32,000 nt of DNA from Gemmatimonadaceae bacterium (GCA_036493735.1 DASXPH010000106.1:29110-61109), one strand, 5' to 3'. Numbered from the stretch's first letter, positions 834-29,001 are shown. Notes: generated from the letters alone by a model not told the origin. A program made the numbers and translations.

Positions 834-955
834 GCGTTGAGCGTTGAGCGTTGAGCGCTGAGCGTTGGCGGTTGGGCGCGGCTGAGAGATGAGACACGCG
901 AATGGCACGGTCGGTTGGCGTGGCGCCTCAACGCCCAACGCTCAACGCCCAGCGA
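834..955. repeat. Inverted arrays of a 7-nt tandem unit: (GCGTTGA)n at 834-878 and (TCAACGC)n at 928-955, with a spacer of about 49 nt.
   Basis: Left arm reads GCGTTGA GCGTTGA GCGTTGA GCGCTGA GCGTTGG CGGTTGG. Right arm reads TCAACGC CCAACGC TCAACGC CCAGCGA. It lies between the stop of 942..1304 (-) and the ATG of permease F at 832. A second copy of the same family is at 20143-20253. Confidence 0.85.
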
Positions 956-1304
956 CCGGCTCGGCGCGCATAGGTTGGAACCAGCGGGCCGTGCCCTGCC
1001 GAAACAGGAGCCAGACGATCAGCATGGTCAGAGCCGCGTGCATCGAGAGCTCGCGGATGTTGCCGAACGCGCTGAGGACCACATGAAAGGTGATCCAGGC
1101 GACCGCCAGCCAGCGCGCCCAGTTCCGGCCTCGGAGCAGGAAAACTGCGGCGACGACCGCGACGAACTCGGTGAGCTCGATCCAGACGCCCTCCGAAGGT
1201 GTCGTTAGCAGATCGTGGAAGTGCGCGACGAAGCCGCCGATGCCGACGGCGAGATATGCGCCGGCAACGACGAGTACGGCCACGGGAGGGCGGACGAAGG
1301 TCAT
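942..1304 (-). CDS. Small integral membrane protein of unknown function (about 4 TM helices).
   Basis: 120 aa ORF with hydrophobic stretches (VAVLVVAGAYLAVGIGGFVA, FVAVVAAVFLL, WLAVAWITFHVVLSAF, AALTMLIVWLLF). No family recognised. Its 3' end overlaps the right arm of the heptamer repeat. Confidence 0.5.
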   Translation of the reverse strand: MTFVRPPVAVLVVAGAYLAVGIGGFVAHFHDLLTTPSEGVWIELTEFVAVVAAVFLLRGRNWARWLAVAWITFHVVLSAFGNIRELSMHAALTMLIVWLLFRQGTARWFQPMRAEPVAGR

Positions 1305-4942: not shown

Positions 4943-6409
4943 TCAGCTGATAGGGAGCACAAGGTGAAAGGTGGCGCCGCCTCGCCGATTGTTCTCTCCC
5001 CATAACGTGCCGCCATGCGAGGTCGCGATCGTGCGCGCGACCGTGAGGCCAAGCCCCAGCCCTTCTGGTTTCGTCGTGTAGAAGGGCTCGAACACGCGCT
5101 CGGCGGATACGTTAGGCAAGCCGGCTCCCGAATCGGCGACGAGCACCTCGACATGCTGAGCGTCGGGCCGAAACAGCTCGACGCGAAGCTGCCGGCTCGG
5201 CGCCGGCGTGCCATTCATTGGGTCGCACCCATTCACAATGAGGTTGACGATGACCTGCAACAGCTTGACTGCATCGCCTCGCACGGGGGGCAATCTATCG
5301 GCAAAATGCACGTTCAGCTCGACGTCCGCGAGCTCAAGGGCACTTCTGCTCAATGCGAGCGCGTCGCGGACGACTTTCTCGACATCGAGCGTCTCGAAGC
5401 GCGACTCTCCATTCCTCAGAAAGAGCCGCAGGTGAGTGATGACACTGGCGGCGTGACGATTCTCGCTCTCGATGTCGGAAAGTGTGGCGCGAAGCATCGG
5501 CAGGTCCGTGGGCTGTCGCGCGAGCATGAGCCTGGCCGCTTGCGCGTTCGCGAGAATCGCCGTCAACGGCTGGCGCAGCTCGTGGGCGAGGGCGACAGAG
5601 AGCTCGCCGGCGGTGGCGATCCGCGTCACGTGCGAAAGCTGGTTCCGCTGATCCTCCAGTGCGCTTGCAATCAGGGTGCGCTCGCGGATGACTGCCGCGA
5701 GCAGCATGACGGGTAGAGAGATTGCGATCCAGTACAGCTGCAGGGACAGCACGACATCGTTGCTCGCCGACAAGACGAATGGCCCCAGTTGACGGGAGGC
5801 GCCCGCAATCGAGAGTGCGGCAATGCACAACAATGAAATGCTCGCGCCCAGCGGCCCAAGCCGTACTGCAGCCCAGATGAGAGGGGGGAACGTCAAGACG
5901 AGCAGCCAGGGGAAACGGGCGAGCTGAGGCCCGGCGGTGACAGCAATGACGCCCACGACGATGACTGTACCCATGATCGTTGCCGCTTCGGCGACGGCTC
6001 CTTTCGATATCGCACGCCACCGCTTCGCACCAAGTGCGCACAGCAACACAGCCGGTGTGACGAGCAGCAAAGGCGTCAGGTTGGCCATGACGAGGCGCGC
6101 AAAGGCAATCGGGGGAGAGAAAAAGGTCTCCAACCCTGCGAGCGAGCGTACGAAACCGGGTCCAGTCAAGGCGAGCGACACAGGCATCACGACGGCGAGG
6201 CACAGGTAGATGAGCACCTCAAGGCCGATCTGGGAACGCTGAAAGAGTACTCCCTGGCTGAGCCGTGCCGTCCAGTAATACCCAGTGCCAAAGAGGATCA
6301 GCCAGACTCGCGATCGCGCTGCGCGGATGAGCACCGCACGGACCCGCTCTTCGAAGTGGAAGTCGGAAAGGAAATCCGACCTCTTGGTCGCGCCTTCAAT
6401 GCGTTCCAT
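4943..6409 (-). CDS. Membrane sensor histidine kinase with a polytopic (MASE1-like) N-terminal domain. No cognate response regulator is adjacent.
   Basis: 488 aa. H-box ALAHELRQPLTAI; ATPase motifs LIVNGCD, DSGAGLP, GLGLGLTVARTIATSHGG. The N-terminal ~250 aa are multi-TM and contain PPLIWAAVRLGPLG, which resembles MASE1. Confidence 0.85.
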   Translation of the reverse strand: MERIEGATKRSDFLSDFHFEERVRAVLIRAARSRVWLILFGTGYYWTARLSQGVLFQRSQIGLEVLIYLCLAVVMPVSLALTGPGFVRSLAGLETFFSPPIAFARLVMANLTPLLLVTPAVLLCALGAKRWRAISKGAVAEAATIMGTVIVVGVIAVTAGPQLARFPWLLVLTFPPLIWAAVRLGPLGASISLLCIAALSIAGASRQLGPFVLSASNDVVLSLQLYWIAISLPVMLLAAVIRERTLIASALEDQRNQLSHVTRIATAGELSVALAHELRQPLTAILANAQAARLMLARQPTDLPMLRATLSDIESENRHAASVITHLRLFLRNGESRFETLDVEKVVRDALALSRSALELADVELNVHFADRLPPVRGDAVKLLQVIVNLIVNGCDPMNGTPAPSRQLRVELFRPDAQHVEVLVADSGAGLPNVSAERVFEPFYTTKPEGLGLGLTVARTIATSHGGTLWGENNRRGGATFHLVLPIS

Positions 6410-6528: not shown

Positions 6529-9198
6529 CTAGTCAGCCCGAAGCACGCTCAACGGATCGCTCCGAGCAGCGCGACGCGCCGGCAGGTAACACGCCGCGAG
6601 CGCGATCCCTGCCAGGAGCAGTGGCAAGGCCAGCAGTACGACCGGATCCGTTGGGCTCACGTCGTAGAGAAGGCTCCCAAGCAAACGGGTGACCGCGAGC
6701 GCGCCTCCGACGCCCAGCGTGACGCCCACCAAGGCGAGGAGAGCGCCCTCGCCGAGCACGAGCCTGACCACCGCGCGCGGATCGGCGCCGATGGCGAGTC
6801 GGATGCCGAACTCGCGGCTGCGATTGGCGACGTGGAGCGACATCACTCCATAGATGCCTACCGCCGCCAGCAACAGCGCGACCAGCGCGAAGCCGCCGAG
6901 CAGGAGCTTCGTTAGGCGTCGCGTCGCGAACGTCTGATCAATAATGTTGGAGAACGACGTCACGTCGTCGAGCGGAATCGCCGGCTCGACTTCGGCGACA
7001 ATGCGGCGTGCCGCCGCGATCGCACTCGCGCTCGATCCGTTCGTCCGAATCACCAGTGAAAACGGAGTATCGCCCGTTTGTGGGATGCTCTGATACAGGT
7101 GCGGCTCCGGTGGAAGCGCCGGGTCACCGTCGCGGACCGTGCCCACGACGCCGATGATCGTGAACCAGGTTGGGGTGCCCGTCGCGCGAATACGATGGCC
7201 GAGCGCCTCGGCGCCCTTCCAGTAACGGTTGGCGATGGTGACGTCGACGATGCCGACCGGCAGACTCGTCGAGTCGTCCGTGGCAGCGAAGTCGCGCCCA
7301 TAGAGCAGCGGAATGCCGATCGTCTTGAAGTATCCGGGACTCACTCCAATCCGATAAGCCTGAGACTCGTTGCCGCTCGAGGGCACCGGTCTGCCGTCGA
7401 TCAGGTATCCATCGTAGTCACCGTTTTGACTCATCGGCAGTCCTGTCGTGAGCGCCGCGGTCTGGACTCCGGGGATCGCGCGCACGCGCGGCAGTATAGC
7501 ATTTACGAATGTGTTCAGTCTGACCGCGTCATTCCCGATTCGCGGCGGTACCCACAGCGCCATGGACGTCACACCGTCGGGTTGAAAACCGAAATCAAGT
7601 TGCGTCAGGCGCTGAAAACTCTTCAGCACAAGGCCGGCGGCAATCAAGAGCACCACGGACAAAGACAGCTGTACCACGACGAGCGCGTTGTTGACTCTCC
7701 GCGAGCCGGCATGCGAGCTCTCACGTTGTCCCGCTGTGAGGTCCGACGTGAGCTGAACCCTGCCGGCGTGAATAGCTGGAAGGAGGCCGAACAGGAGACC
7801 GCTCGCGAGCGATACCGCTAATGTGAACGCGAGCACGCGACCATCGACGGAGACTTCGTCGATGCGCGGTAGCGTGGCGAGATTCGAGTGCGTGAAGAAG
7901 CGAACCGCGACTATCGCGAGTCCGACACCCACGACCGCGCCGAGCAGGGCGAGTGCGACGCTCTCGGTGAGCAGCTGGCGCATCACTCGCCTTCCGCTCG
8001 CCCCGAGCGCGGCGCGCAGCGTGATCTCACGCTGCCGCGCCGCGGCCCTTCCAGACAACAAAGTTGCGACATTCGCGATCGCGATTAATAAAATCAGCGT
8101 CACTGCCGCGAGCAGAACTGTCAACGAACGCGCACTATTGCCGGTGATCTGCTCGTGGAGCGGCGTAACGAGCGTCTTCATGCGCGTCTTGCTGGGATCT
8201 ACCGATGCACTGACGACGTGCTGCTGCCGCGCCCACTCCCACATGATCGCTGTCGTCTGCCGCTCGGCGTGCTCCACTGTGACACCAGGCTTCAGCCGTG
8301 CAAGTCCCGCATTGAAAAACCCCCACCGCCAGTTCGGATCCAAGCCCACGGGGAGATACGCGCTGATTCCCGGCCGCGGGAACTCGAAGCTCGCCGGCAT
8401 GACGCCAACGACGCGTATTGGTTGTCCATCGATATCGATCGTCTTCCCGATCACAGAGGGATTACCACCGAAGCGCGAGCGCCACATCCCATCGCTGAGA
8501 ATCATCACCGTGTTCTTCCCTGGCGAATCTTCTTCCGTGGTGAACTCCCGACCGATTACCGGGCCGACACCGATGGCGCGGAAGAACTGCGCCGTTACAC
8601 GGAGGATCCGAATGCGCTGCGGCCCCTTGGCATCCTGCACCGCTACGCTACCACCTCGGTAACCGGCAAATGCGCTGAAGTCCGTCGAGCGGTCGCGGTA
8701 CATCGCGATGTTCATCGGATTGAGACCCCAACTATCGAGGCCCTTCTCCGGATACGATTGAAAGATCCCGACAATCCGGTCGGACTGCGGATACGGCAGC
8801 GGACGCAAGAGAATGCTGTTCACGAGTGTGAACATCGCCGTGGTCGCACCAATACCCAGAGCTAGCGTAACGATGGTGACGGCAGCGAACGTCGGCATAC
8901 GCCGAAAGGTGCGAAGTGCGTAGCGGAAGTCGGTGAAGAGAGACTCGAGCCATTCCATGAGTCGTACCTCGCGAGCGTATTGCCGGTCGATGGTGAGACA
9001 TTCGTCACGAACGCCAGCCCGATCGCCAAACCGATCGTGTGCGCTGGCGCGGGCAGCTTCAGGTGGTAGTCCGAGCTGTTTGAGCTTCTCCTCGCGCATG
9101 CTGAGATGAAACGCGAGCTCGTCGTCGATGTCGCGCTCGATGGAGCGCTCTCCGAGTCGCAGACGGAGCAGCCGCCGCCAACCGGGCGCCGGACTCAC
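6529..9198 (-). CDS. ADOP-type duplicated FtsX/MacB permease with a cytoplasmic N-terminal prefix domain ('permease A').
   Basis: 889 aa. Prefix DIDDELAFHLSMREEKLKQLGLPPEAARASAHDRFGD, then [34 protein letters not shown] (TM1). Two periplasmic-domain plus FtsX units. C-terminus REFGIRLAIGA...YLPARRAARSDPLSVLRAD. The GTG start overlaps the PadR-A stop (GTGA). Confidence 0.92.
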   Translation of the reverse strand: MSPAPGWRRLLRLRLGERSIERDIDDELAFHLSMREEKLKQLGLPPEAARASAHDRFGDRAGVRDECLTIDRQYAREVRLMEWLESLFTDFRYALRTFRRMPTFAAVTIVTLALGIGATTAMFTLVNSILLRPLPYPQSDRIVGIFQSYPEKGLDSWGLNPMNIAMYRDRSTDFSAFAGYRGGSVAVQDAKGPQRIRILRVTAQFFRAIGVGPVIGREFTTEEDSPGKNTVMILSDGMWRSRFGGNPSVIGKTIDIDGQPIRVVGVMPASFEFPRPGISAYLPVGLDPNWRWGFFNAGLARLKPGVTVEHAERQTTAIMWEWARQQHVVSASVDPSKTRMKTLVTPLHEQITGNSARSLTVLLAAVTLILLIAIANVATLLSGRAAARQREITLRAALGASGRRVMRQLLTESVALALLGAVVGVGLAIVAVRFFTHSNLATLPRIDEVSVDGRVLAFTLAVSLASGLLFGLLPAIHAGRVQLTSDLTAGQRESSHAGSRRVNNALVVVQLSLSVVLLIAAGLVLKSFQRLTQLDFGFQPDGVTSMALWVPPRIGNDAVRLNTFVNAILPRVRAIPGVQTAALTTGLPMSQNGDYDGYLIDGRPVPSSGNESQAYRIGVSPGYFKTIGIPLLYGRDFAATDDSTSLPVGIVDVTIANRYWKGAEALGHRIRATGTPTWFTIIGVVGTVRDGDPALPPEPHLYQSIPQTGDTPFSLVIRTNGSSASAIAAARRIVAEVEPAIPLDDVTSFSNIIDQTFATRRLTKLLLGGFALVALLLAAVGIYGVMSLHVANRSREFGIRLAIGADPRAVVRLVLGEGALLALVGVTLGVGGALAVTRLLGSLLYDVSPTDPVVLLALPLLLAGIALAACYLPARRAARSDPLSVLRAD

Positions 9199-9542
9199 GC
9201 GAGCTCCACCGACGTCCGCCTCAGCACCCCGGCGATCGCCTCAGCGTGGCGATGCCAGAGCGGCGCCTGGGCGCGAAAGCGTGCGCGGCCAGCAGTGGTG
9301 AGCTTATAGAATTTTGCCCGACGATTGTTGTCCGACACGCCCCACTCGCTCGCGATCCAGCCGCGGCGCTCGAGGCGGTGGAGCGCTGGATAGAGCGTCC
9401 CTTCCTCGAGGAGGAGCAGCGACGCCGTGGCGCCCTCGATCCACTCACTGATGCCGTAGCCATGCATCGAGCCCCAGCTGAGTGTCTTGAGGATCAGCAG
9501 ATCCAGACTGCTGCGAAGGAGATCGGTTTCGGTGTCGGCCAT
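9195..9542 (-). CDS. PadR-family transcriptional regulator (Acidobacterial-type), 'PadR-A'.
   Basis: MADTETDLLRSSLDLLILKTLSWGSMHGYGISEWI...EGTLYPALHRLERRGWIASEWGVSDNNRRAKFYKLTTAGR. Start taken at the internal ATG 9542 (residue 19 of the track ORF), preceded by an AAGGGA Shine-Dalgarno-like sequence. Confidence 0.9.
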   Translation of the reverse strand: MADTETDLLRSSLDLLILKTLSWGSMHGYGISEWIEGATASLLLLEEGTLYPALHRLERRGWIASEWGVSDNNRRAKFYKLTTAGRARFRAQAPLWHRHAEAIAGVLRRTSVELA

Positions 9543-9552
9543 AGGTCCCTTA

Positions 9553-9601
9553 CCCTTGTGACACAAGGGATGGTAAAAGCGTTGCCATAGCGACACAAGG
9601 G
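9553..9601 (-). promoter_or_regulatory. Candidate PadR-A promoter and operator: palindrome CCCTTGTG-N1-CACAAGGG (9553-9569) plus a second half-site copy 32 bp away.
   Basis: GACACAAGGG occurs at 9560-9569 and 9592-9601, an offset of 32 bp. On the coding (-) strand: TTGTGT (9598-9593), 17 nt, TACCAT (9575-9570). The distal box therefore covers the -35 and the palindrome covers the predicted transcription start. Confidence 0.4.
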
Positions 9602-9609
9602 GAGTGACT

Positions 9610-9694
9610 CGAACGGCGCGAAGTCCCGAACGACGCGAAGTCCCGAACGACGGACAATTCGAACTCAGCGCCCTTTGGAACTCAGCGCCGGTCG
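9610..9694. repeat. 17-nt tandem-unit array 1 (3 type-1 units followed by 2 type-2 units).
   Basis: CGAACGGCGCGAAGTCC (9610), CGAACGACGCGAAGTCC (9627), CGAACGACGGACAATTC (9644), then GAACTCAGCGCCCTTTG (9661), GAACTCAGCGCCGGTCG (9678). It lies in the divergent PadR-A/PadR-B intergenic region. Confidence 0.85.
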
Positions 9695-9697
9695 CCT

Positions 9698-9751
9698 TCT
9701 AGTTGACATTCTACCAGAAGGAGCGCATACTCTGGTAGAATGTCAACTAGA
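9698..9751 (+). promoter_or_regulatory. Perfect 21-bp inverted repeat spanning the PadR-B promoter and start codon (candidate operator).
   Basis: TCTAGTTGACATTCTACCAGA (9698-9718), 12-nt spacer AGGAGCGCATAC, then TCTGGTAGAATGTCAACTAGA (9731-9751); 21/21 complementary. TTGACA (9703-9708), 17 nt, CATACT (9726-9731). The PadR-B ATG (9740) lies inside the right arm. Confidence 0.6.
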
Positions 9752-10096
9752 GACGAATCGCAGGCCCTCCTTCAGGGCACCCTCGACCTACTTGTCCTGC
9801 GTGTCCTCGCGCTTGGCTCACACCATGGCCACGGCATCGTCGTCGCCATCCAGTCGCGGTCGGGGCACACCCTCCTCGTGGATCATGGCTCCCTCTACCC
9901 TGCCCTCCAGCGCCTCGAACAGCGCGGCTGGATCAAGGGTGCATGGGGCCTGTCCGACAACAATCGCCGCGCGCGCTTCTACTCCCTCACGGCGCTCGGT
10001 CGAAAACATCTCACGATCGAAACCAGCCGCTGGAATCGACTCGTCGAATCCATTGCCCGAGTCATGGACCCCAATCCCACAACGGAGAACGCCTGA
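9740..10096 (+). CDS. PadR-family transcriptional regulator, 'PadR-B'.
   Basis: MSTRDESQALLQGTLDLLVLRVLALGSHHGHGI...HGSLYPALQRLEQRGWIKGAWGLSDNNRRARFYSLTALGR. The stop overlaps the permease B start (TGATG). Confidence 0.92.
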   Translation: MSTRDESQALLQGTLDLLVLRVLALGSHHGHGIVVAIQSRSGHTLLVDHGSLYPALQRLEQRGWIKGAWGLSDNNRRARFYSLTALGRKHLTIETSRWNRLVESIARVMDPNPTTENA

Positions 10097-12705
10097 TGTT
10101 CGGCCGCCGTTCGCAACGAGACTTCGAGGACGAGATTCGCTCGCACCTCCAAATGGAGATCGAACGCCTCCAGGCACTCGGCATGTCCCGCAGCGACGCC
10201 GAGCGTGCCGCGCGTCGACACTTCGGCAATGTTGGTGTCGCTGAAGACAACTTCTACCACATGAATCGCTTCGCATGGCTCGACGACACCGGCCGCGACT
10301 TGCGACATGCGATGCGCGCGCTGCTACGCACGCCTGGATTTCTGTTCATCACAGTTGTGACGCTGGCACTCGCGATCGGCGCCACCGCCGGCATGTTTGG
10401 CGTCGTCAACACCGTATTGCTCGAGCCACTGCCATTCCCGCATCCGGAGCGGCTTGTCAGCGTCCAGGGTACCGCGCCAGGCACCGATCTAACTCAGCGG
10501 TTCGATCTCGGCCTCGATTTCTACCTGCACTACAAGGAACGCTCGAAGCTCATCGACGGCATTCTCACGTTCAGTAGTGGGACTTCGACCTTCCGCACTG
10601 ACGAACGCGTCGAGCGCATTGAAATGTCATGGGTGACGGACGACATGTACGCGACGCTGGGCGTTCATCCGCAATTGGGACGCGTTCCGGTGCCTGACGA
10701 CGATGGCAACGCCGTCGTCATCAGCGATGAGCTCTGGAACACCTGGTTCGGACGGGACCCATCGGTGATCGGGAAATCCTTTTTCGTGTCGGATACCACG
10801 AAGAAGATCGTCGGCGTGATGCCGCGCGGATTCCATTTTCCGAACGACAACACGCTGCTCTGGATCTCGAACAACGTACGTCTCAAAGATGTACGGCCGG
10901 GCAATTTCGGAATGCCGATCCTCGTGCGCATGAAAGAGGGTGTGAGTCAGGAGCAGTTGGCCGCGGACATGACACGGCTGGCAAAGGAGCTGCCGGCTCG
11001 CTTTGGCGGAGCGCCTAACTACGCGCGGATAATCAAGAGCTACCGCGCGGTCGTCAGCTCCGTGCTCGACCGCATGGTTGGACCAACGCTCAGAACATCG
11101 CTCTGGGTGCTGCTCGGCGCGGTCACGGTGGTGTTGCTCATCGCCTGTGCCAATGTCGCCAACTTGTTCATGGTTCGCGCCGAGTCGCGTCGACGCGACC
11201 TCACGGTGCGTCGTGCGATCGGCGCGTCGCGCGCGCAGCTCGTCCGCTTTCAGATGGCCGAGGCGTCTGTCGTCGCACTCGCGGCTGGCGTGCTCGCGGT
11301 GGTTCTGAGCACGGTTACGCTGCCGCTCTTTGTGCGCGCGGCGCCGCAAGGCATTCCGCGGCTTGGCGAGGTCGGGCTCGATCTGCCGACCATCGCGGTG
11401 ACGTTCGGTCTCGTGATTGTCGTGGCACTTCTGTGCGGCGCCGCGCCGGCGATCCGCGCCTCTTCACCCGACTTGACGGCGCTTCGCGAGGGCGGCCGCG
11501 GCTCCACGCGGGGACGTCGCTGGGGGAGGGACCTGCTCGTCATCGGACAGACGGCGCTCGCGCTGGTGCTGATTATCGGCGCCGCGCTGCTGGTGGAGAG
11601 CTTCCAGCGGCTCCGCCACGTCAATCCTGGCTACGACATCAAGGGTATATACACCTTCCAGTTTGCGCCGCAGCAACCGCAGCTTCGCGATGGACCGTCG
11701 TTAGGCCGGATGCATCTCCTGGTCATGGATCGGTTACGCGCGTTGCCGGGCGTGACGACTGTCGGCGTCGTAAACAACATCCCGCTCGACGAGGGCACGG
11801 ACGGCGTCCGGGTGACCGCGGAGGGAATGCCGAGCGACGGTGGCGGCGCGCCGATCAACATGAACTTCACGGGCGGAGACTATTTCCGCGCCATGGGAAT
11901 CAAGCTGCTGCAGGGGCGCACGTTCACAAACGAAGAAGCCGTGACGCCCAATTCCAATGTCATCATCAGTCGCGCGGCCGGCGAGAAACTCTGGCCCGGT
12001 CAGAATCCACTCGGAAGAAGAATCCGTCCGCGCTTCGGACGTCAGGACACCCTCGCGTTCACGGTCGTCGGTGTCGTGAACGACGTGAAGCAGCTCGATT
12101 GGCGTGAGGCCGGCGACGCAGTGATCTATTTCCCGCTCACGGGTCCGTTCGCTGGTGCTTGGGGAATGGGCTCACCCGCCTATGTCGTCAAGTCGCCGCG
12201 CGCGGAGATGCTGAAGGGCGAGGTGCGACAGATCGTGCACGAGGTTGCGCCCGAAGCGCCGGTGTACCGTGAGTACACCATGGAATTCCTCTCGCGCCGG
12301 TCAATGATCCAGCTTTCGTTCACGATGCTCACGCTCGGCGTGGTGTCTGCGCTCGCACTCATTCTCGGCGCGCTAGGGCTATACGGCGTGCTGTCGTACG
12401 TCGTTGCGCAGCGGACGCGCGAGATCGGCGTGCGCATGGCGCTGGGAGCATCGGCCGGCGCGGTGCGGCGACAGGTGGTTTCCGAGGGCGCGAAGGTCGT
12501 GCTCGTCGGCGTGGCGATCGGCATCGTCGCCGCATTCGCGTCGACACGACTGCTCGGCACGCTCCTGTACGGCGTGAAGGCTGTGGATCCGCTGGTCTTT
12601 GCCGCGATGTCGCTCGTGATGCTTGGCATTGGCGTGCTGGCCAGCTACATGCCCGCCCGCCGCGCCAGCAGTGTGGATCCGATCGAGGCGCTGCGCAGCG
12701 ATTGA
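10096..12705 (+). CDS. ADOP-type duplicated FtsX/MacB permease with N-terminal prefix domain ('permease B').
   Basis: Start moved to ATG 10096 (residue 52 of track ORF 9943..12705). MFGRRSQRDFEDEIRSHLQMEIERLQALGMSRSDAERAARRHFGNV..., then DLRHAMRALLRTPGFLFITVVTLALAIGATAGMF. First FtsX unit [32 protein letters not shown]; second REIGVRMALGAS...YMPARRASSVDPIEALRSD. Confidence 0.92.
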   Translation: MFGRRSQRDFEDEIRSHLQMEIERLQALGMSRSDAERAARRHFGNVGVAEDNFYHMNRFAWLDDTGRDLRHAMRALLRTPGFLFITVVTLALAIGATAGMFGVVNTVLLEPLPFPHPERLVSVQGTAPGTDLTQRFDLGLDFYLHYKERSKLIDGILTFSSGTSTFRTDERVERIEMSWVTDDMYATLGVHPQLGRVPVPDDDGNAVVISDELWNTWFGRDPSVIGKSFFVSDTTKKIVGVMPRGFHFPNDNTLLWISNNVRLKDVRPGNFGMPILVRMKEGVSQEQLAADMTRLAKELPARFGGAPNYARIIKSYRAVVSSVLDRMVGPTLRTSLWVLLGAVTVVLLIACANVANLFMVRAESRRRDLTVRRAIGASRAQLVRFQMAEASVVALAAGVLAVVLSTVTLPLFVRAAPQGIPRLGEVGLDLPTIAVTFGLVIVVALLCGAAPAIRASSPDLTALREGGRGSTRGRRWGRDLLVIGQTALALVLIIGAALLVESFQRLRHVNPGYDIKGIYTFQFAPQQPQLRDGPSLGRMHLLVMDRLRALPGVTTVGVVNNIPLDEGTDGVRVTAEGMPSDGGGAPINMNFTGGDYFRAMGIKLLQGRTFTNEEAVTPNSNVIISRAAGEKLWPGQNPLGRRIRPRFGRQDTLAFTVVGVVNDVKQLDWREAGDAVIYFPLTGPFAGAWGMGSPAYVVKSPRAEMLKGEVRQIVHEVAPEAPVYREYTMEFLSRRSMIQLSFTMLTLGVVSALALILGALGLYGVLSYVVAQRTREIGVRMALGASAGAVRRQVVSEGAKVVLVGVAIGIVAAFASTRLLGTLLYGVKAVDPLVFAAMSLVMLGIGVLASYMPARRASSVDPIEALRSD

Positions 12706-12715
12706 GGAGAGGCGT

Positions 12716-15367
12716 CTACTCTTCGCGCAACGCCAGCACCGGAGCGATCCGGAGCGCCCGACGTGCCGGCACGCTGGTCGCCAAAATCGAGATCACGATC
12801 ATTGTAAGCGTCGCGAAGCTGAAGACACCGAAATCCGCCGGGGGCACCTGGTAGAGCATCGATCCAACGAGCCTCGCCACAGCGACGGATGCAGCGAGGC
12901 CGATTGCTACGCCGACGAACAGCAACCTACCCATCTGCGCCGCGACGACCTGCAACACGTCTCGATGCTGCGCTCCCAGAGCCACACGCACGCCAATTTC
13001 TTTGGTCCGCTGCGTGACGGCATAGCTCACGATCCCGTACAGGCCTATGGCCGCGAGCAGCGACGCGATGAGCGCCAATAGAATCAGAAGCTGCATGGCA
13101 GCATGTTGTCCCTCGAGCGGGCCATCGACATAGGTCTCGAGCGGCATCGCGTTGAAGACGGGTACGCCCGGATCGAGCGCTCGTACGGCCTGCTCGATCG
13201 CTCGCACGGCCTCCGGGACGGCGCCCGCCGTCCGCAGCAGTACGGCGTAACCATACTCTGGCCGATACACCTGTCGTACGGGCACGTAGAAGTACGGCGT
13301 CGGCGCGTCGCTGAGACGATAGAACTTCGTGTCCTTCACGACACCGACGATCGTGAACCAGCGGCCCCACCCGTGCACGCGCACGCCTAACGCGGCACCG
13401 CCGCCGAGGAAGTGCCGCACGAACGCGTCGTTCACGATCATCACCGGCACGTGCGCCGAATCATCGGCGAGGGTGAACTCGCGCCCCGCGACGAGCGGCA
13501 CCCGAAGCACCTTGAAGTAGTCCGGACCAATCGCCGCGCGATAAAGCTTCATGTTCTCGTTCGGCGCTGGCGCATAGCCCTCGACTCGGAGCTCCTCCCA
13601 TGATCCGGCACCGAGACTCAGCGGAACGTAATCCGTGTAGCTGGCCGCCTGGACGCCCGGCTCGTGGGAGAGCCGATCCGCGACGTTGCTGAGAAACGCT
13701 TCGGCGCGTGCGGAGTCGTAGCCGGCGAGCGTCACGCTCACGGAAGCCATCGCGACGTCTTGTGCATCGAAGCCCGGCGACACCGCACGCGTATGGCGAA
13801 AACTCTCGAAGAACAATCCCGCTCCAACGAGCGACACCACGGCCAGTGCCATCTCGAGGGTCACGAGCGTGCGCCGCGCCCGCGCAGCACCGCGGTTGCC
13901 CGCCGTTCCGCGCCCGCCGCTGCTGAGCGCTTCGCCTAACGCGGCACGCGAGCCCTGAAGGGCCGGGACGATCCCAGCGAGCACCGTCACCGCGATTGCG
14001 AGCAAGGCGGTGAACGCCAACACGCTTCGGTCCACGTGCGGCGCGAGCAGGGCCGGTCGCGCAAACGACGGTAGGAGCGAATTGAGCGAACGCGCAAGCC
14101 AGGCCGCACCCAACAGTCCCAGCGTGGCCCCGCTGATCGCGAGAAGGGACGCCTCGGTGAGCAGTTGCCGGATGAGGCGAGCCCGCGGCGCGCCGAGCGC
14201 GAGCCGAAGCCCGAGCTCGCGCGCTCGCGCCGTCGCGCGCGCGAGAAGCAGACTCGCCGCGTTTGCGCAGACGATGAGTAACACCAATCCACAGGCGACG
14301 AGCAGTACCACCAGGGGCTCGCGGAGTGCGTCCTGCGCGCCCCAATGCGATTGCCAGATTGGCATCAGTCGGCCTTCCATCCCCTTGCTGACAGCGCCGT
14401 TCACGCTCGCCATGAACGCGGTGAACGATTCGACTTCGGCGCGCGCGGCATTGAAGTTCACACCATCCCGGAGACGCGCCAGCACGCGGAAGGTTCGCGT
14501 ACCCCGATCGCGGAGCCACCACCCGCCGGTCGGGACGATCTGGCCCAGCATCGCCGCCGGCACCCACACGTCGAACTCCTCGCCCGACATCGAGCCATGA
14601 AAGGCCCGTGATGCGACGCCGACCACCCGAAACGGAAATTGGTTGATGTCGACGACACTGCCGACGACGGAACTGTCGCCGTGCCACCGGCGCTGCCACA
14701 ACTCGTAGCTGATGACGGCGAGTGGCTGCGCCCCCTCGTTCTCCTCGACCGTCGACGGAAAGAAGCCGCCGAGCGCCGGTTGGACGCGCAACACCTCGAA
14801 GAAGTTGGCGGACACGAGCTCGCCCCAGACGCGCTCCGAATGCGCGGCATCGCCTAACGCGAGCGACGTCGGATAGGCGGCCGCGAGCCCGTCGAAGGAT
14901 CTGAGGTATCTCCGAAGATCGCGGTAATCGAGCCAGGACGTTGGCGTCCAGCTGCCGGAAGCGGTCGTCGTCTCGAGCGCGAAGATACGCTCGGGTGCAC
15001 GGGTGCCGGGGAGTGGATCGAGCAAGACGCTCCGTGTCCAACTGAATACGGTCGCCGTCGCCGCAATGCCGATCGCGAGTGTAATGACGATCACCGACGA
15101 CATCGTCGGCACCCGCCGCATCTGTCGGAGCGCGTAACGCACGTCCATCAGGATCGACTCGAGTGTGGGCCACTGCCAGACCGCACGGCCCTCCTCCTGG
15201 ATGTACGTCACGTTCCCGAACGCGCGCCGTGCCTCCGCACGCGCGTCAGCCGGCGAAAGGCCCCGTGCGATCAACGCGTCGGTCTTTTCTTCGAGGTGCG
15301 ACTGCATCTCGCTCGCGAGATCGTCGTAGAGTTGGCGCTGGCGCACCAGGGCATCGAGCCATCTCAT
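12716..15367 (-). CDS. ADOP-type duplicated FtsX/MacB permease with N-terminal prefix domain ('permease C').
   Basis: 883 aa. DDLASEMQSHLEEKTDALIARGLSPADARAEARRAFGNV, then DVRYALRQMRRVPTMSSVIVITLAIGIAATATVF. C-terminus [12 protein letters not shown]...SVPARRALRIAPVLALREE. ATGA overlap with the PadR-C stop. Convergent with permease B, only 10 bp apart. Confidence 0.92.
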   Translation of the reverse strand: MRWLDALVRQRQLYDDLASEMQSHLEEKTDALIARGLSPADARAEARRAFGNVTYIQEEGRAVWQWPTLESILMDVRYALRQMRRVPTMSSVIVITLAIGIAATATVFSWTRSVLLDPLPGTRAPERIFALETTTASGSWTPTSWLDYRDLRRYLRSFDGLAAAYPTSLALGDAAHSERVWGELVSANFFEVLRVQPALGGFFPSTVEENEGAQPLAVISYELWQRRWHGDSSVVGSVVDINQFPFRVVGVASRAFHGSMSGEEFDVWVPAAMLGQIVPTGGWWLRDRGTRTFRVLARLRDGVNFNAARAEVESFTAFMASVNGAVSKGMEGRLMPIWQSHWGAQDALREPLVVLLVACGLVLLIVCANAASLLLARATARARELGLRLALGAPRARLIRQLLTEASLLAISGATLGLLGAAWLARSLNSLLPSFARPALLAPHVDRSVLAFTALLAIAVTVLAGIVPALQGSRAALGEALSSGGRGTAGNRGAARARRTLVTLEMALAVVSLVGAGLFFESFRHTRAVSPGFDAQDVAMASVSVTLAGYDSARAEAFLSNVADRLSHEPGVQAASYTDYVPLSLGAGSWEELRVEGYAPAPNENMKLYRAAIGPDYFKVLRVPLVAGREFTLADDSAHVPVMIVNDAFVRHFLGGGAALGVRVHGWGRWFTIVGVVKDTKFYRLSDAPTPYFYVPVRQVYRPEYGYAVLLRTAGAVPEAVRAIEQAVRALDPGVPVFNAMPLETYVDGPLEGQHAAMQLLILLALIASLLAAIGLYGIVSYAVTQRTKEIGVRVALGAQHRDVLQVVAAQMGRLLFVGVAIGLAASVAVARLVGSMLYQVPPADFGVFSFATLTMIVISILATSVPARRALRIAPVLALREE

Positions 15368-15750
15368 GCCTCACCCCCCAGCGCAAGCACCAGCGTGATG
15401 CCTTCGAGCATCCGTTCGAAACGGGAGATCTCGATCCCCAGATGCTTGGAGCCAGCCCGCGTGATCCGATAGATGCGCACCCGGCGATTGGTCGCCGACA
15501 CTCCCCACTCGGCCTCGACGAGACGCTCCTTCAGCAAACGCTGAAGCGCGGGGTAGAGCGATCCCTCTTCGACTTGCAGGAGATTTTGGGAGGCTTGTTG
15601 GATGCGCTGCACGAGGGCATAGCCGTGCATCGGCTGCCGTTTGAGGAGGCGCAGCACCATGAGCTCGAGCGCCCCGGGGAAAAGGTCGCGCGATTCCGAA
15701 TCAGGCATGACGCGATCGAGAAGCGAGAGTAGTGGCCAGCCGATACCCAT
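15364..15750 (-). CDS. PadR-family transcriptional regulator, 'PadR-C'.
   Basis: ...LFPGALELMVLRLLKRQPMHGYALVQRI...EGSLYPALQRLLKERLVEAEWGVSATNRRVRIYRITRAGS. The start is uncertain: ATG 15750 (track) or ATG 15708 (MPDSESRDLF...), which matches the length of the other PadRs better. Confidence 0.88.
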   Translation of the reverse strand: MGIGWPLLSLLDRVMPDSESRDLFPGALELMVLRLLKRQPMHGYALVQRIQQASQNLLQVEEGSLYPALQRLLKERLVEAEWGVSATNRRVRIYRITRAGSKHLGIEISRFERMLEGITLVLALGGEA

Positions 15751-15751
15751 A

Positions 15752-15806
15752 CCCTGTTCAGCACAAGGCCTAGAGCAGAATAGTATGCGCGTGTGGGCGC
15801 TGTCAA
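15752..15806 (-). promoter_or_regulatory. Candidate PadR-C promoter plus an imperfect palindrome related to the PadR-A operator.
   Basis: On the (-) strand: TTGACA (15806-15801), 15 nt, TACTAT (15785-15780). On the + strand, CCCTGTTCAGCACAAGG (15752-15768) shares CCCT......CACAAGG with the PadR-A palindrome CCCTTGTGACACAAGGG. The 9-mer GCGCATACT around the -10 is also present at the PadR-B promoter. Confidence 0.35.
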
Positions 15807-15983
15807 TCGCGCGGTTACCTGCGAAAGTTGCGAAGCTGACGTGCGGGTGCTAGACTTAGTGAGCGATACACGCCGTTCAACGCGTGGACATGTTCCGATC
15901 GATCAGGGGCCTGCCGAATGCGAGCAGGCCCCTTTTGTTTTCCGGCCAATCGTCGTTCGCCCCTCACTCCAGGAGTTTAGGAT

Positions 15984-16172
15984 ATGCGGACGAGGGCATT
16001 CGACGAGCATCGCGACTCGCCGCTCTGGCGCGCGCTGGAGGAGGTCGTCGCCGAATTGGTCGCGACACAGGAAATCACGATCAACACGGCGCCGGAGTAT
16101 GTGATCGGGTATCTCTGTCGCGAATTGATGGCGAAGCGAATGGTGTCAGCTGGCGCATCAGAAACCTCCTAG
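15984..16172 (+). CDS. Small hypothetical protein (62 aa).
   Basis: AGGAG lies 8 nt upstream of the ATG. GC-rich third codon positions. The sequence looks like a real protein (MRTRAFDEHRDSPLWRALEEVVAELVATQEITINTAPEYVIGYLCRELMAK...), unlike the Arg-rich overlapping frame of 15884..16234. Confidence 0.45.
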   Translation: MRTRAFDEHRDSPLWRALEEVVAELVATQEITINTAPEYVIGYLCRELMAKRMVSAGASETS

Positions 16173-16234
16173 CCGCCGGCCGCTCCGCGGCCGTTCACGT
16201 TAGGCAGATGATGTTTCCCGTTCCGAGGTTCCTC

Positions 16235-16663
16235 ATGCATTCGAAGACGATTCTCATGGTTCAATCGGGCAATGATTCCCTTTCACGTCTTCGCATGCGG
16301 CTGGAGGACCTAGGGTATACGATCGTCCAGGCCGCTGACGCGGCAACCGCCATGGACATCGCCAACCGCTCCGAAATTGCGCTTGTCGTGACGGAGTTAT
16401 ATCTCCGCCTCGGCACATGCCGCTGTCTCGGTCGTGTCATTGGCAGGTCGCCGGCGCTCCGACGCACCAAGCTGCTCGCGTACACAGCACACGGAAAGCG
16501 AAGAGATCGCGACTGGGCACAACGCATCGGCGCCGATGGATACGTGATCAGCCGTTCCGGCGATGAGCGTTTTCTCTCCGTCGTCGACCATCTGATGACC
16601 GCTCGGTCGAGACCGCGTCGCTATTGGGACGATGATGCGATTCACCAGAGCCGCCGAACATAG
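16235..16663 (+). CDS. Stand-alone receiver (REC)-like protein with degenerate phospho-acceptor residues (pseudo-receiver).
   Basis: Start moved to ATG 16235, with GAGG 6 nt upstream. Alternating beta/alpha pattern of CheY-like receivers: KTILMVQSGND (DD pocket replaced by QS), ALVVTELYL (Asp replaced by Glu), LLAYTAH (Thr kept), GADGYVISRS (Lys missing). Confidence 0.6.
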   Translation: MHSKTILMVQSGNDSLSRLRMRLEDLGYTIVQAADAATAMDIANRSEIALVVTELYLRLGTCRCLGRVIGRSPALRRTKLLAYTAHGKRRDRDWAQRIGADGYVISRSGDERFLSVVDHLMTARSRPRRYWDDDAIHQSRRT

Positions 16664-16999: not shown

Positions 17000-18163
17000 A
17001 TGACCAGTGCAAGGCTCTCGACATTCATCCGACAGAATGCCGAACCCATCTTGTCGGAGTGGGAAGCCTTCGCGCGCACGCTGCCACGGGGCTCCTCGAT
17101 GGATGTCGATGCACTTCGCAATCACGCGAAGGCGATGCTCGAGGATATCGCCAGAGACATGGAGACGCCGCAAACCGAACGCGAGCGCTCTGACAAATCG
17201 AAGGGCGTGCTACCTCAACGGCACACCGTTGCCGCGACCGAGCACGGCCATGCCCGTGCCGGTAGCGGATTCACTGTCGTGGAGATGGTTGCGGAGTTTC
17301 GCGCACTCCGTGCGACAGTGATTCGCCTGTGGACCGCGCAGCTGCCGCAGTTTGCCCAGGCGGAAGCCGACGACTTGATCCGCTTCAATGAGGCGATCGA
17401 CCAGGCGGTTGCCGAGTCACTCGAGCGTTATGCTGGTGAGATCAACGAAACACGAGAGCGGTTTCTTGCGATCCTCGGGCACGATCTCAAGAATCCGCTC
17501 GGCGCGATCGCGGCCTCGGTGAGTTTGCTGCGGGAGACCGCATCAGCTGGCGCGGAGCGGTCGAAGGTGATTCAGATCATCCAGAATGCCACGTTACGCA
17601 TGACGAATCTCGTCGCCGACATGCTGGAGCTCGCACTCAGCCGTCTGGGCGACGACATGCCCGTTCGTATGAGTGAAGTGAATATGCGAGATGTGATCGA
17701 ACGTGTCGTCGCGGAGATCCGTGCGACATACCCCACTGCGCAGATCACGACGAGCTTCCACGGCGATCTCGCCGGTCATTGGGACGCGTCACGGTTGACG
17801 CAGGCTTTGACGAACCTGATTGCAAATGCGGCCCAACACGGCGACCTGAGTAAACCCATCCACGTCATCGGCCGCGGCGACCGGACGGAAGTGTCGATAG
17901 AGGTGCGCAACAGCGGCCCGACCATTGGCAGCGAGAGACTCCGTCAGCTGTTCGAAGGACGCAGCGCAGCCCGTGGCGAGAGCCGCGATCGACGGCATCT
18001 CGGACTTGGGCTTTTCATCGTCGACAAGATCGTCGCTGCTCACGGTGGCTCCATCGACGTGCGGTCGGCGAATTCCGAGACAGCTTTCGTCGTTCATCTA
18101 CCGAGAGCGGAGCTCGGCCGGAAACCCAAAGCTCCCAGACTCGAAAATCGCGCGTCGGCCTGA
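17000..18163 (+). CDS. Soluble sensor histidine kinase with an RsbRD_N-like N-terminal domain.
   Basis: 387 aa. The N-terminus LSTFIRQNAEPILSEWEAFART resembles the RsbRD N-terminal domain. H-box FLAILGHDLKNPLGAI. ATPase motifs NLIANAAQHG, VRNSGPTI, GLGLGLFIVDKIVAAHGGSI. Confidence 0.85.
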   Translation: MTSARLSTFIRQNAEPILSEWEAFARTLPRGSSMDVDALRNHAKAMLEDIARDMETPQTERERSDKSKGVLPQRHTVAATEHGHARAGSGFTVVEMVAEFRALRATVIRLWTAQLPQFAQAEADDLIRFNEAIDQAVAESLERYAGEINETRERFLAILGHDLKNPLGAIAASVSLLRETASAGAERSKVIQIIQNATLRMTNLVADMLELALSRLGDDMPVRMSEVNMRDVIERVVAEIRATYPTAQITTSFHGDLAGHWDASRLTQALTNLIANAAQHGDLSKPIHVIGRGDRTEVSIEVRNSGPTIGSERLRQLFEGRSAARGESRDRRHLGLGLFIVDKIVAAHGGSIDVRSANSETAFVVHLPRAELGRKPKAPRLENRASA

Positions 18164-18472: not shown

Positions 18473-18579
18473 GGCGCGACGTCCCGAACGGCGCGACGTC
18501 CGGAACGGCGGAGCCTTCGCAACACCGCGCTCTTTGGAACTCAGCGCCGTTTGGAACTCAGCGCCCTTGGATTCCCTAA
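18473..18579. repeat. 17-nt tandem-unit array 2 (3 type-1 units followed by 3 type-2 units), between convergent genes.
   Basis: GGCGCGACGTCCCGAAC (18473), GGCGCGACGTCCGGAAC (18490), GGCGGAGCCTTCGCAAC (18507), then GCTCTTTGGAACTCAGC (18529), GCCGTTTGGAACTCAGC (18546), GCCCTTGGATTCCCTAA (18563). The two halves are imperfectly complementary, giving a possible bidirectional terminator hairpin. Confidence 0.85.
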
Positions 18580-20057
18580 CGTTGCGTGCGCTGCCGAGCG
18601 AATAGAAGGTTGAATATGCGCACCCCGCTCACACCGCCGTTTCCGTCGGGAACGAACGTCAACACCGTCGGGCGGCCGCCGCTCGACTTCGTGCGGAACG
18701 CGTCGTAGCTGACCGGCTCGAGCGGCACGGCAGGATCGGTGACTACCGCGGCCTCGAGAGCGCCATTCTGAAAGGTTACGCGTACGTCGCCATAGGCCGA
18801 ATCGACGTACGTCCCGGCGTAACGCTCGAGTGGTAAGGACGGAGGCGACGTCGTACGCCCGCTTTGCGCCACCTGCGTCCGCGGGGGCCGCGCGAAGATC
18901 GGCTTGAGATCGACACTCCAGTCGCGGCGCGGACCATTGTCGAAGAGGTCGAACACGGTGTACATCAGGCCGTGGCGGAGCTCCGCGTGGTCGAGGTTCT
19001 CGAGCACGTAGACGCCGAGTCGTTTGTTCGGCTCGATGCCGATGATCGCGCAGAGGCCGTTGATGCTGCCGGTGTGCATCCAGACGTGCTGGCCGCGATA
19101 GTCCTGGATGAACCAGCCCAAGCCGTAGCTGAAGAAGTCGGGCTTCGCGAGCTGAAGCGCCGGGTACTCTTCCATCGGTGCCTGAATCTGTGGCGTGACC
19201 AACTCGGCGAAGGTGCTCTGCTTGATCAGACGCTTGTCGCCCACGCGCCCGCTGTCGATCACGAAGCGCATCCACTTGGCCATATCCGCCACGCTCGACC
19301 AGACGCTTCCCGCGGACGCCACGCCATCGGTGGACCGTACCGGTACGATCATCACGGAATCGCCAACGAGCGCGTGCGGCACGGCAACGTTAGGCTTGCC
19401 CATGATCATCGAGACGAGCGGCTCCGTCTCGTTCATGCCGAGCGGGGTGAAGAGGCGCGTCTTGACGAACTGCTCCCACGGCATGCCGGAGACGCGCTCG
19501 ATGATCAACCCGTTGAGGGCGTACATGACATTGTGATACTGCCACTCCGAGCGGAACGAAGCCGTTGGTTCGATGTAGCGAAGGCGCCGGATGATGTCGG
19601 CCTCACTGTACTTCCAGTTCGACGCCCAGAACAAATCGGTGCCGGGAAGACCGCTGCGATGCGTGAGGAGGTCGCGGATCGTGATCTCACGCGTGACCCA
19701 TGGATCGTGCAGCTGGAGCTCGGGGATGTATTTCGTGACGGGGTCATCGAGCTTGAGCTTGCCCTCGTCCACGAGCATGGCGAGCAACGCGGACGTCATC
19801 GCTTTGGTCGTCGATCCGATCGCAAAGCGCGTGTGCTCGTTGGCAGGCTGCGGCTTTCCCTTCTCCAGCACGCCGTAGCCCTTGGCGAAGACGACCGAGT
19901 CGTCCTTGACGACCGCGATCGCGAGCGCCGGTATGCGCCAGTCAGCGGCGGCCTTTGCGACGTATTTGTCGAACGCGGCCCAGTCGGGTTTGGCCTGCGC
20001 GCCGAGCGTCTGCGCGGCGATGAGCAGCGCCGCCGGCAACCATCTTTGTGCTCTCAC
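18576..20057 (-). CDS. Secreted serine hydrolase / class C beta-lactamase-family protein.
   Basis: Start moved to GTG 20057, giving signal peptide (M)RAQRWLPAALLIAAQTLGAQA. S-x-x-K motif GSTTKAM and YHN motif. The C-terminal ~100 aa beta-domain is typical of this family. The longer track ORF runs through the heptamer repeat (LNAQR peptides) and is rejected. Confidence 0.85.
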   Translation of the reverse strand: MRAQRWLPAALLIAAQTLGAQAKPDWAAFDKYVAKAAADWRIPALAIAVVKDDSVVFAKGYGVLEKGKPQPANEHTRFAIGSTTKAMTSALLAMLVDEGKLKLDDPVTKYIPELQLHDPWVTREITIRDLLTHRSGLPGTDLFWASNWKYSEADIIRRLRYIEPTASFRSEWQYHNVMYALNGLIIERVSGMPWEQFVKTRLFTPLGMNETEPLVSMIMGKPNVAVPHALVGDSVMIVPVRSTDGVASAGSVWSSVADMAKWMRFVIDSGRVGDKRLIKQSTFAELVTPQIQAPMEEYPALQLAKPDFFSYGLGWFIQDYRGQHVWMHTGSINGLCAIIGIEPNKRLGVYVLENLDHAELRHGLMYTVFDLFDNGPRRDWSVDLKPIFARPPRTQVAQSGRTTSPPSLPLERYAGTYVDSAYGDVRVTFQNGALEAAVVTDPAVPLEPVSYDAFRTKSSGGRPTVLTFVPDGNGGVSGVRIFNLLFARQRTQR

Positions 20058-20142
20058 TTCGTTGTCCGTCCGGTAGAAAGTTGAGTTCAGCTTCAGAGTC
20101 GACGGCAATGATGAGGGGCGGGCATGCGTAGGGGAAGACGTG

Positions 20143-20253
20143 GAGCGTTGGGCGTGGTGCGTTGCGCGTTGAGCGTTGAGCGTGAGGCGCTGACTGCTGG
20201 TGACTGACATCCCAACGCTCAACGCACAACGCCCAACGCTCAACGCTCAACGC
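20143..20253. repeat. Inverted arrays of the 7-nt unit, second copy: GCGTTGA-type units at 20143-20193 and TCAACGC-type units at 20212-20253.
   Basis: Left arm: GCGTTGG GCGTGGT GCGTTGC GCGTTGA GCGTTGA GCGTGAG GCGCTGA. Loop of about 18 nt. Right arm: CCAACGC TCAACGC ACAACGC CCAACGC TCAACGC TCAACGC. It sits at the 3' end of the M28 peptidase gene (stop at 20247-20249, inside the right arm) and upstream of the hydrolase gene. Confidence 0.85.
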
Positions 20254-22600: not shown

Positions 22601-22733
22601 GAACGGCGCCGCCCGCCGTTTGGAACTCAGCGCTGTTTGGGACCGGGCGCCGTTTGGAAGTCAGCGCCGTTTGGAAGTCAGCGCCGTTTGGAAGTCAGCG
22701 CCGTTCGGAACTTCGCGCCCTTCCTAGTTTCGC
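22601..22733. repeat. 17-nt tandem-unit array 3 (a vestigial type-1 end followed by about 7 type-2 units, 3 of them identical).
   Basis: GAACGGCGCC (22601), then GCCGTTTGGAACTCAGC (22615), GCTGTTTGGGACCGGGC (22632), GCCGTTTGGAAGTCAGC three times (22649, 22666, 22683), GCCGTTCGGAACTTCGC (22700) and the degenerate GCCCTTCCTAGTTTCGC (22717). It lies between the pth2 start and the PadR-D promoter. Confidence 0.9.
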
Positions 22734-22759: not shown

Positions 22760-22810
22760 CCTTGACATTCTAGGGAATCCCCATATCATGTCCTAGACAT
22801 TCTTGGGAAT
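22760..22810 (+). promoter_or_regulatory. PadR-D promoter with two direct operator-like boxes 32 bp apart.
   Basis: TTGACA (22762-22767), 16 nt, TATCAT (22784-22789). Boxes are CCTTGACATTCTAGGGAAT (22760-22778) and CCTAGACATTCTTGGGAAT (22792-22810), 17/19 identical. Each contains an ATTC-N4-GAAT mini-palindrome. The 11-mer TTGACATTCTA is identical to the PadR-B operator arm. Confidence 0.55.
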
Positions 22811-22814
22811 GATC

Positions 22815-23159: not shown

Positions 23160-23161
23160 CG

Positions 23162-28992: not shown

Positions 28993-29001
28993 ACGACCAA
29001 C

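Follow-up and report, generated by a model that had tools for sequence, protein, structure and literature searches.

A 32,000-nucleotide stretch of DNA from a Gemmatimonadaceae bacterium (GCA_036493735.1, DASXPH010000106.1:29110-61109), referred to here as the window, contains at positions 6529-15750 three adjoining modules, each of which consists of a short PadR-type regulator and a duplicated MacB/FtsX-type permease of the ADOP family. The permeases of these modules carry an N-terminal prefix domain that is nearly confined, among related loci, to ADOPs encoded beside a PadR gene. We propose that each module would act as a self-regulated, Bce-like sensor unit of the HAAS-PadR type whose ATPase is supplied from elsewhere in the genome, a reading to which we give about an even chance. 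The genes and prefixes of the three modules are as follows.

9195-9542, minus strand: PadR-A, 115 residues, 125.6 bits on TIGR03433; the JGI gene call is also 115 residues
6529-9198, minus strand: permease A, 889 residues, prefix plus ADOP, 877 bits on TIGR03434
8998-9159, minus strand: prefix of permease A, residues 14-67, 37.8 bits on NF038403 (perm_prefix_1)
9740-10096, plus strand: PadR-B, 118 residues, 141.6 bits on TIGR03433
10096-12705, plus strand: permease B, 869 residues, 755 bits on TIGR03434
about 10102-10236, plus strand: prefix of permease B, 42.6 bits on perm_prefix_1
15364-15750, minus strand: PadR-C, 128 residues as called, 126.1 bits on TIGR03433
12716-15367, minus strand: permease C, 883 residues, 771 bits on TIGR03434
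15191-15361, minus strand: prefix of permease C, residues 3-59, 56.0 bits on perm_prefix_1

The initial annotation of the window had placed the three modules at these positions, and the open reading frame (ORF) map, the junction sequences and the independent JGI gene calls concur. The overlaps between regulator stop and permease start that it described, GTGA in module A, TGATG in module B and ATGA in module C, can be read at the junctions, and the 4-nucleotide overlap between PadR-C and permease C is kept in orthologous modules. A start of permease B at 9943 was rejected as an over-extension, based on the ORF map, the junction sequence and the JGI gene calls. The call for PadR-C is probably 14 residues too long, because its orthologues are 113–115 residues in length and begin at MPD; the true start is probably the ATG at 15708, giving a protein of 114 residues.

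The curated cut-offs of the families concerned are 622.3 bits for TIGR03434 (ADOP, acidobacterial duplicated orphan permease), 101.8 bits for TIGR03433 (padR_acidobact) and 30 bits for NF038403. All three PadRs and permeases A–C exceed the cut-offs of their families, as the initial annotation had supposed, and the genes are co-localized in the way in which those families were described. The two families are not confined to Acidobacteria, and the source lineage here is a Gemmatimonadaceae metagenome-assembled genome and not an acidobacterium. The PadRs are nearest to LmrR-type drug-binding regulators. Identities of 35–47% among the PadRs and 30–35% among the permeases agree with the earlier view that the paralogues are old.

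Each permease had been described as a fusion of two MacB/FtsX units, and Pfam indeed gives two MacB_PCD and two FtsX domains per chain. The AlphaFold model of permease C has eight transmembrane (TM) helices and two periplasmic domains, with a predicted local distance difference test score (pLDDT) of 81 and a predicted template modeling score of 0.73. Each half has the four-helix arrangement of type VII transporters: the periplasmic domain is inserted after TM1, ahead of TM2, and a coupling helix connects TM2 to TM3. A Foldseek search with the model retrieved E. coli YbbAP as the best match (E = 5e-18), followed by MacB, LolCDE, BceAB and HrtBA (to 1e-7). The permease of the YbbAP-TesA system (Protein Data Bank (PDB) codes 9ge6 and 9ge7; PMC12646458) is likewise a duplicated type VII permease in one chain, and it too has two periplasmic domains. 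YbbP differs in having an adjacent ATPase, YbbA, and in lacking both a PadR and an N-terminal prefix, and the sequence identity is 14%.

The prefix had been overlooked in the initial annotation. All five PadR-linked permeases of the window, three in the cluster described above and two beyond it, open with about 60 residues ahead of the ADOP core that score above the NF038403 cut-off (36.8–56.0 bits), and the prefix is absent from the remaining permease, F. The additional genes are as follows.

22809-25831, plus strand: module D, with PadR-D at 22809-23159 and permease D at 23162-25831, a 2-nucleotide gap between them; permease D scores 922 bits on TIGR03434 and its prefix 42.8 bits on perm_prefix_1
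25994-28992, plus strand: module E, with PadR-E at 25994-26350 and permease E at 26347-28992, joined by an ATGA overlap; permease E scores 794 bits on TIGR03434 and its prefix 36.8 bits on perm_prefix_1
1-832, minus strand: permease F, cut at the window edge, 828 residues in full, an ADOP without prefix and without PadR

Six permease genes had been counted in the window; five of them (A–E) are complete, and the sixth is truncated by the window edge. The full gene of permease F, found on the extended contig at L005:13585-16071, begins straight at the ADOP core and is neither preceded by a PadR gene nor followed by an ATPase gene. Permease F is a natural internal control for the PadR-linked permeases.

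By analogy with MacB-type proteins, whose N terminus is cytoplasmic (PMC5985334), the prefix, which lies ahead of TM1, would sit in the cytoplasm together with the PadR. In the AlphaFold model of permease C it is predicted to form three helices (residues 10–34, 39–50 and 53–64; pLDDT 52–89), with an invariant Gly-51 at the junction of the second and third; Glu-20, His-24, Gly-36 and Ala-42 are likewise invariant. The prefix family comprises 31,644 clusters at 50% identity (E ≤ 0.001). Among ten mid-length top matches, nine contain MacB_PCD, with or without FtsX, and the tenth is a 163-residue protein without a permease domain. When 42 prefix sequences were compared with Pfam, HAAS (PF22564) was the only family matched by more than one of them, although the four matches were weak (best E = 0.0028); a second scan with ten chosen members of the prefix family gave no match to HAAS.

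The linkage between PadR and prefix was followed in a census of 80 loci from species-representative genomes, found with an alignment of the six paralogues, to which the window was added. The loci come from Acidobacteriota, Gemmatimonadota, Verrucomicrobiota and other phyla. In all stop-to-stop ORFs, hidden Markov models (HMMs) were used to identify the ADOP core, the prefix and PadR; ATP-binding cassette (ABC) ATPases were sought with both a motif and an HMM. Among 194 ADOP genes with an intact N terminus, 53 are prefixed and 141 are not. Of the 53 prefixed genes, 35 are immediately preceded by a PadR gene, compared with 2 of the 141 unprefixed ones, and both of the latter have long unassigned N termini. 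The remaining 18 prefixed genes are mostly second or third members of PadR-headed arrays. Purely prefixed arrays are headed by a PadR gene in 29 of the 34 cases with a visible head, and in the window all five prefixes stand beside a stand-alone PadR. The adjacency of PadR and ADOP genes, for which the initial annotation had suggested a genome-wide census, is thus strong but not absolute, and it is nearly confined to prefixed ADOPs. In some arrays a single PadR gene accompanies two or three prefixed permease genes (RPP and RPPP). One census locus (L014:1854-15345) has five prefixed ADOPs in tandem, with no PadR detected at the head.

Across the 35 cognate pairs, pairwise distances between the PadRs are correlated with those between the prefixes (Spearman 0.31, Mantel p = 0.001). 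No correlation was found for the same pairs between PadR distance and that of TM1, the first periplasmic domain, TM2–4, the second periplasmic domain or TM6–8 (r from −0.07 to 0.10, p > 0.16). The correlation fits either co-evolution driven by contact or movement as a shared cassette, and on either account PadR and prefix would form a functional unit. A neighbor-joining tree of 173 ADOP cores does not place the prefixed members in a clade and requires 36 state changes; the tree is star-like and says little beyond the likeness of prefixed and unprefixed cores. Because the prefix is nearly confined to PadR-adjacent ADOPs and co-varies with the PadR, and because the architecture has been published, the sequence comparisons support PadR and permease as a functional pair, beyond mere neighborhood.

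This architecture belongs to a wider proposal. Ravi et al. (2024, mSystems) united DUF1700, DUF1129 and DUF1048 in the HAAS domain, a unit of three helices, the last of which contains a conserved G-x-P kink; the domain is always found beside a PadR-like winged helix-turn-helix protein (PMC11237479). HAAS-PadR dyads were proposed as substitutes for two-component systems, and fusions to "FtsX-like TM domains with MacB/PCD domains" are named among them (PMC11237479). The HAAS-PadR pair fused to an FtsX/MacB_PCD permease in Acidobacterium capsulatum (for example ACP_2125/ACO32024.1; PMC11237479) resembles the window modules in architecture and in proposed role. The modules differ in lineage, in being recognized by perm_prefix_1 and not by the Pfam HAAS model, and in having a G-x-V kink. 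The statement that these families have no assigned function is therefore out of date, since a HAAS-PadR signaling hypothesis is already in print, although it is computational and silent on the ATPase (PMC11237479). The idea of a membrane sensor joined to a transcription factor is plausible and supported, but not new: the pairing and the association of the prefix with the PadR hold, whereas the ATPase-free form given in the initial annotation does not find support.

Two characterized systems are comparable in part. In Listeria, the short PadR repressors LstR and LltR mainly control the operons to which they themselves belong (PMC6624303). As here, the PadR gene is followed by that of a membrane protein, which in LstR/lmo0421 and LltR/lmo0600 has a DUF1700/HAAS N terminus; the partner in these Firmicutes is either homologous to FtsW/RodA or a multi-TM protein of the DUF1700 type, and not an ABC-type permease (PMC6624303). 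The flux-sensing resistance system BceAB-BceRS of Bacillus is similar in that a permease of the MacB superfamily doubles as a sensor through which its own expression is controlled. Bce systems have a histidine kinase and a response regulator, a permease with one extracellular domain and 10 TM helices, and an adjacent ATPase, whereas the window modules have a PadR and an N-terminal prefix in place of the kinase pair and no adjacent ATPase. No BceS-like kinase was found with the modules either; the nearby kinases are of the MASE1 and RsbRD_N types.

The initial annotation had found no ABC ATPase gene in the 32 kb, and this was confirmed in all frames by a motif expression and by an HMM derived from 25 ATPases of ADOP arrays; a Pfam scan of the other genes agreed. 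The ADOPs of the window thus agree with the description of the family as orphan, which we take to refer to the absence of an adjacent ABC ATPase gene. In the census, however, orphan status is a property of some gene contexts and not of the whole family, because unprefixed ADOPs often lie in ATPase-headed arrays. An ATPase gene is the head of 13 of the 49 purely unprefixed arrays with a visible head, and 10 of 14 complete multi-gene unprefixed arrays have one or two ATPases, compared with none of 16 complete single unprefixed ADOP genes. In such arrays, a single ATPase gene is shared by as many as seven or eight permease genes. The ATPases of these arrays belong to one tight type VII nucleotide-binding domain (NBD) family that is most like DarD, MacB, LolD, YbbA and FtsE. 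A profile search with them gave at least 8000 matches; none of the best 120 was labelled Gemmatimonadaceae. Within these 120 the ATPases are 74–83% identical to the query, compared with about 35% for the permeases. Arrays with two ATPases (among L017, L049, L055, L060 and L069) usually have one with the Walker A sequence GPSGCGKS and one with GPSGAGKS, which hints at a heterodimeric NBD pair that would suit an asymmetric fused permease.

The permeases retain the parts with which type VII transporters contact an ATPase. In MacB, the major coupling helix and a C-terminal minor coupling helix touch the NBD (PMC5985334). The six paralogues of the window keep the motif R-x-x-E-(I/L/F)-(G/A/T)-(V/I/L)-R-x-A-(L/I)-G-(A/V) after TM2 and again after TM6, as well as a C-terminal tail P-A-x-R-A...P..A(L/M)(R/Q), and these elements correspond to the NBD-contacting helices of MacB (PMC5985334). 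In the AlphaFold model of permease C, short helices lie exactly at both motifs.

14198-14224, minus strand: coupling helix 1 of permease C, residues 382-390, RELGLRLALGA, between TM2 and TM3
12980-13006, minus strand: coupling helix 2 of permease C, residues 788-796, between TM6 and TM7

Prefixed and unprefixed ADOPs share one consensus across these regions. The column entropies of the two classes are 1.33 and 1.31 bits for the first coupling motif, 1.37 and 1.23 bits for the second and 1.04 and 0.84 bits for the tail. In both classes variability is greatest in the periplasmic domains, at about 2.5 bits, and among the window permeases these domains are 23–26% identical compared with 41–48% for the TM blocks. 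Nothing in these sequences points to a loss of selection on the cytoplasmic docking surface. The simplest reading is that the ATPase would be encoded elsewhere and be common to many ADOP paralogues.

The candidate control regions of the three modules contain inverted repeats close to the promoter.

9553-9601, no strand given: candidate operator of PadR-A, with the palindrome CCCTTGTG-T-CACAAGGG at 9553-9569 and a second half-site copy at 9585-9601
9698-9751, plus strand: control region of module B, a perfect 21-nucleotide inverted repeat with arms at 9698-9718 and 9731-9751
15761-15806, minus strand: promoter-like site of module C, TTGACA-18-TATTCT (15806-15777), followed by the near-palindrome GCTCTAGGCCTTGTGC (15776-15761)

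The palindrome of module A, found in an inverted-repeat search, lies 13 nucleotides upstream of the PadR-A ATG. The repeat of module B encloses TTGACA-17-CATACT (9703-9731) and overlaps the PadR-B ATG; one such promoter-like site was found there, compared with 0.1 expected. As the −10-like hexamer ends at 9731 and the ATG at 9740 falls within the right arm of the repeat, so near the promoter-like site, the sequence suggests that the PadR-B mRNA is leaderless or nearly so. In module C, the pattern TTGAC...CTCTAGGCCTTGAG...GGGT is kept in four orthologous promoters from genomes with different flanking genes; the sequence around it has otherwise diverged. The inverted repeats are unlike one another between modules, as would be expected if each PadR recognizes its own operator. 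We infer from their position that the repeats are candidate operators through which the PadRs may repress their own transcription.

Taken as a mechanism, a dimer of the short LmrR-type PadR would repress its own bicistronic operon by binding the inverted repeat over the core promoter. The permease would be a fused mechanotransmission machine of type VII (MacB/YbbP-like) with 8 TM helices and two periplasmic domains, and its cytoplasmic three-helix prefix, HAAS-like and PadR-associated, would contact the cognate PadR. Binding of a substrate at the variable periplasmic domains, together with cycling of the permease, may cause a conformational change that reaches the prefix, which would then capture or reconfigure the PadR, so that the operon is de-repressed. 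The permease would thereby match its own expression to demand, much as BceAB does, with no histidine kinase involved and with the signal running from permease to regulator. Power would most likely come in trans from a type VII ATPase encoded elsewhere and common to many ADOP paralogues.

Several observations weigh against this mechanism. To our knowledge, no ADOP has been studied experimentally. The kink motif of the prefix is G-x-V/I/L and not the published G-x-P of HAAS, and the Pfam families HAAS, DUF1700, DUF1129 and DUF1048 do not match the five window prefixes at E ≤ 10. A prefix profile searched against PDB sequences did not retrieve 2O3L, its top matches being chance-level ribosomal proteins, and a Foldseek search of the PDB with a prefix-only AlphaFold model (pLDDT 69) gave nothing under E = 1.5. 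Five prefixed arrays (L014, L024, L043, L059 and L070) have no detectable PadR at the head, and the correlation between PadR and prefix could stem from the physical linkage of the DNA and not from protein contact. As for the ATPase, none is encoded in the 7.7 kb of the JGI contig beyond the window or within 10 kb of three orthologous modules, and an ADOP-type ATPase is absent from all 36 purely prefixed arrays. The gene is also missing within 10 kb at nine sampled Gemmatimonadota loci. These absences favor a different account, in which the permease scaffold would not transport at all but serve as an ATPase-independent receptor, with ligand binding in the periplasm passed through the prefix to the PadR ("reverse mechanotransmission"). 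This is close to the earlier hypothesis that the missing ATPase marks a sensor and not a transporter, and it is not supported on that ground: conservation of both coupling helices and of the C-terminal helix equals that in the unprefixed class, with the same consensus, unprefixed ADOPs are often headed by an ATPase, and YbbAP uses a separate one. Moreover, the cores of the two classes are not separated on the tree, which gives no sign of a diverged receptor subfamily; single unprefixed ADOPs are equally orphan, yet their relatives in arrays clearly use an ATPase; and every characterized type VII system requires its ATPase (PMC5985334). The inference is weak also because the BceAB parallel chosen in the initial annotation itself requires an ATPase. 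We regard a receptor of this kind as quite unlikely.

Another possibility is an ordinary repressor and pump: the PadR, like LmrR and LadR, would respond directly to a cytoplasmic ligand, it would receive no signal from the permease, and the prefix would have some other task such as docking of the ATPase. The kinship of the PadRs with LmrR-type regulators agrees with this, as do co-transcription of regulator and permease and the inverted repeats over the promoters. It leaves unexplained, however, why the prefix is nearly confined to PadR-adjacent ADOPs and why PadR divergence tracks the prefix alone, and the existence of ATPase-linked ADOPs without a prefix means that the prefix is not required for docking; we consider it unlikely, if not remote. 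The prefix might instead be a membrane anchor or chaperone for the PadR that serves stoichiometry or assembly without signaling, for which the translational coupling and the near one-to-one pairing of the genes would speak. The RPP and RPPP arrays do not fit this one-to-one scheme and the published contexts of HAAS are sensory (PMC11237479), which leaves an anchor very improbable. Self-regulation through the prefix, with an ATPase acting in trans, is the reading that we retain at the even chance given above.

In soil Acidobacteriota, Gemmatimonadota and Verrucomicrobiota, ADOPs and the PadRs paired with them rank among the largest families of paralogues. If signaling between PadR and prefix is true, these organisms would have dozens of sensor/effector modules that respond to envelope-active compounds, insulated from one another and free of kinases. 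If instead the permeases were ATPase-independent receptors, they would constitute a large unrecognized class of kinase-free signaling proteins, with tens of thousands of clusters in soil bacteria. What is gained here is that the prefix is singled out as the candidate part for PadR binding, and that the orphan label would be premature for permeases that may be served by a conserved type VII ATPase encoded elsewhere.

The surroundings of the modules show additional features. A gene for a MASE1-domain histidine kinase (4943-6409, minus strand) follows permease A on the same strand after 120 nucleotides, and next to module C there are an RsbRD_N-type kinase (17000-18163) and an ORF resembling a receiver (15884-16663); neither kinase adjoins the module in three orthologous loci. 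An ORF for a 120-residue membrane protein (942-1304, minus strand) precedes permease F. An Rfam scan of the window returned no RNA family.

Two kinds of tandem repeat occur between genes. Heptamers GCGTTGA/CAACGCT, in 4–6 copies, are present in the intergenic regions 834-951 and 20139-20253, and one of these regions is directly upstream of the permease F start. Tandem repeats of 17 bp, with a unit of about GCGCCGTTTGGAAGTCA and variants of it, fill intergenic regions that mostly flank PadR/permease modules.

9610-9690, 18473-18565, 22614-22712, 25846-25913 and 28999-29090, no strand given: 17-bp repeat regions

There are nine matches to the 17-bp unit at three mismatches or fewer, compared with 0.06 expected. 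At the same locus, the JGI contig has exactly one 17-nucleotide unit fewer near 18551-18700, so that the copy number varies between assemblies. Near the right edge of the window, a TonB-dependent-receptor-like ORF, called by eye from the translation, runs from about 30150 (plus strand) to the edge, and its translation has a signal-peptide-like start followed by a carboxypeptidase-regulatory-like region.

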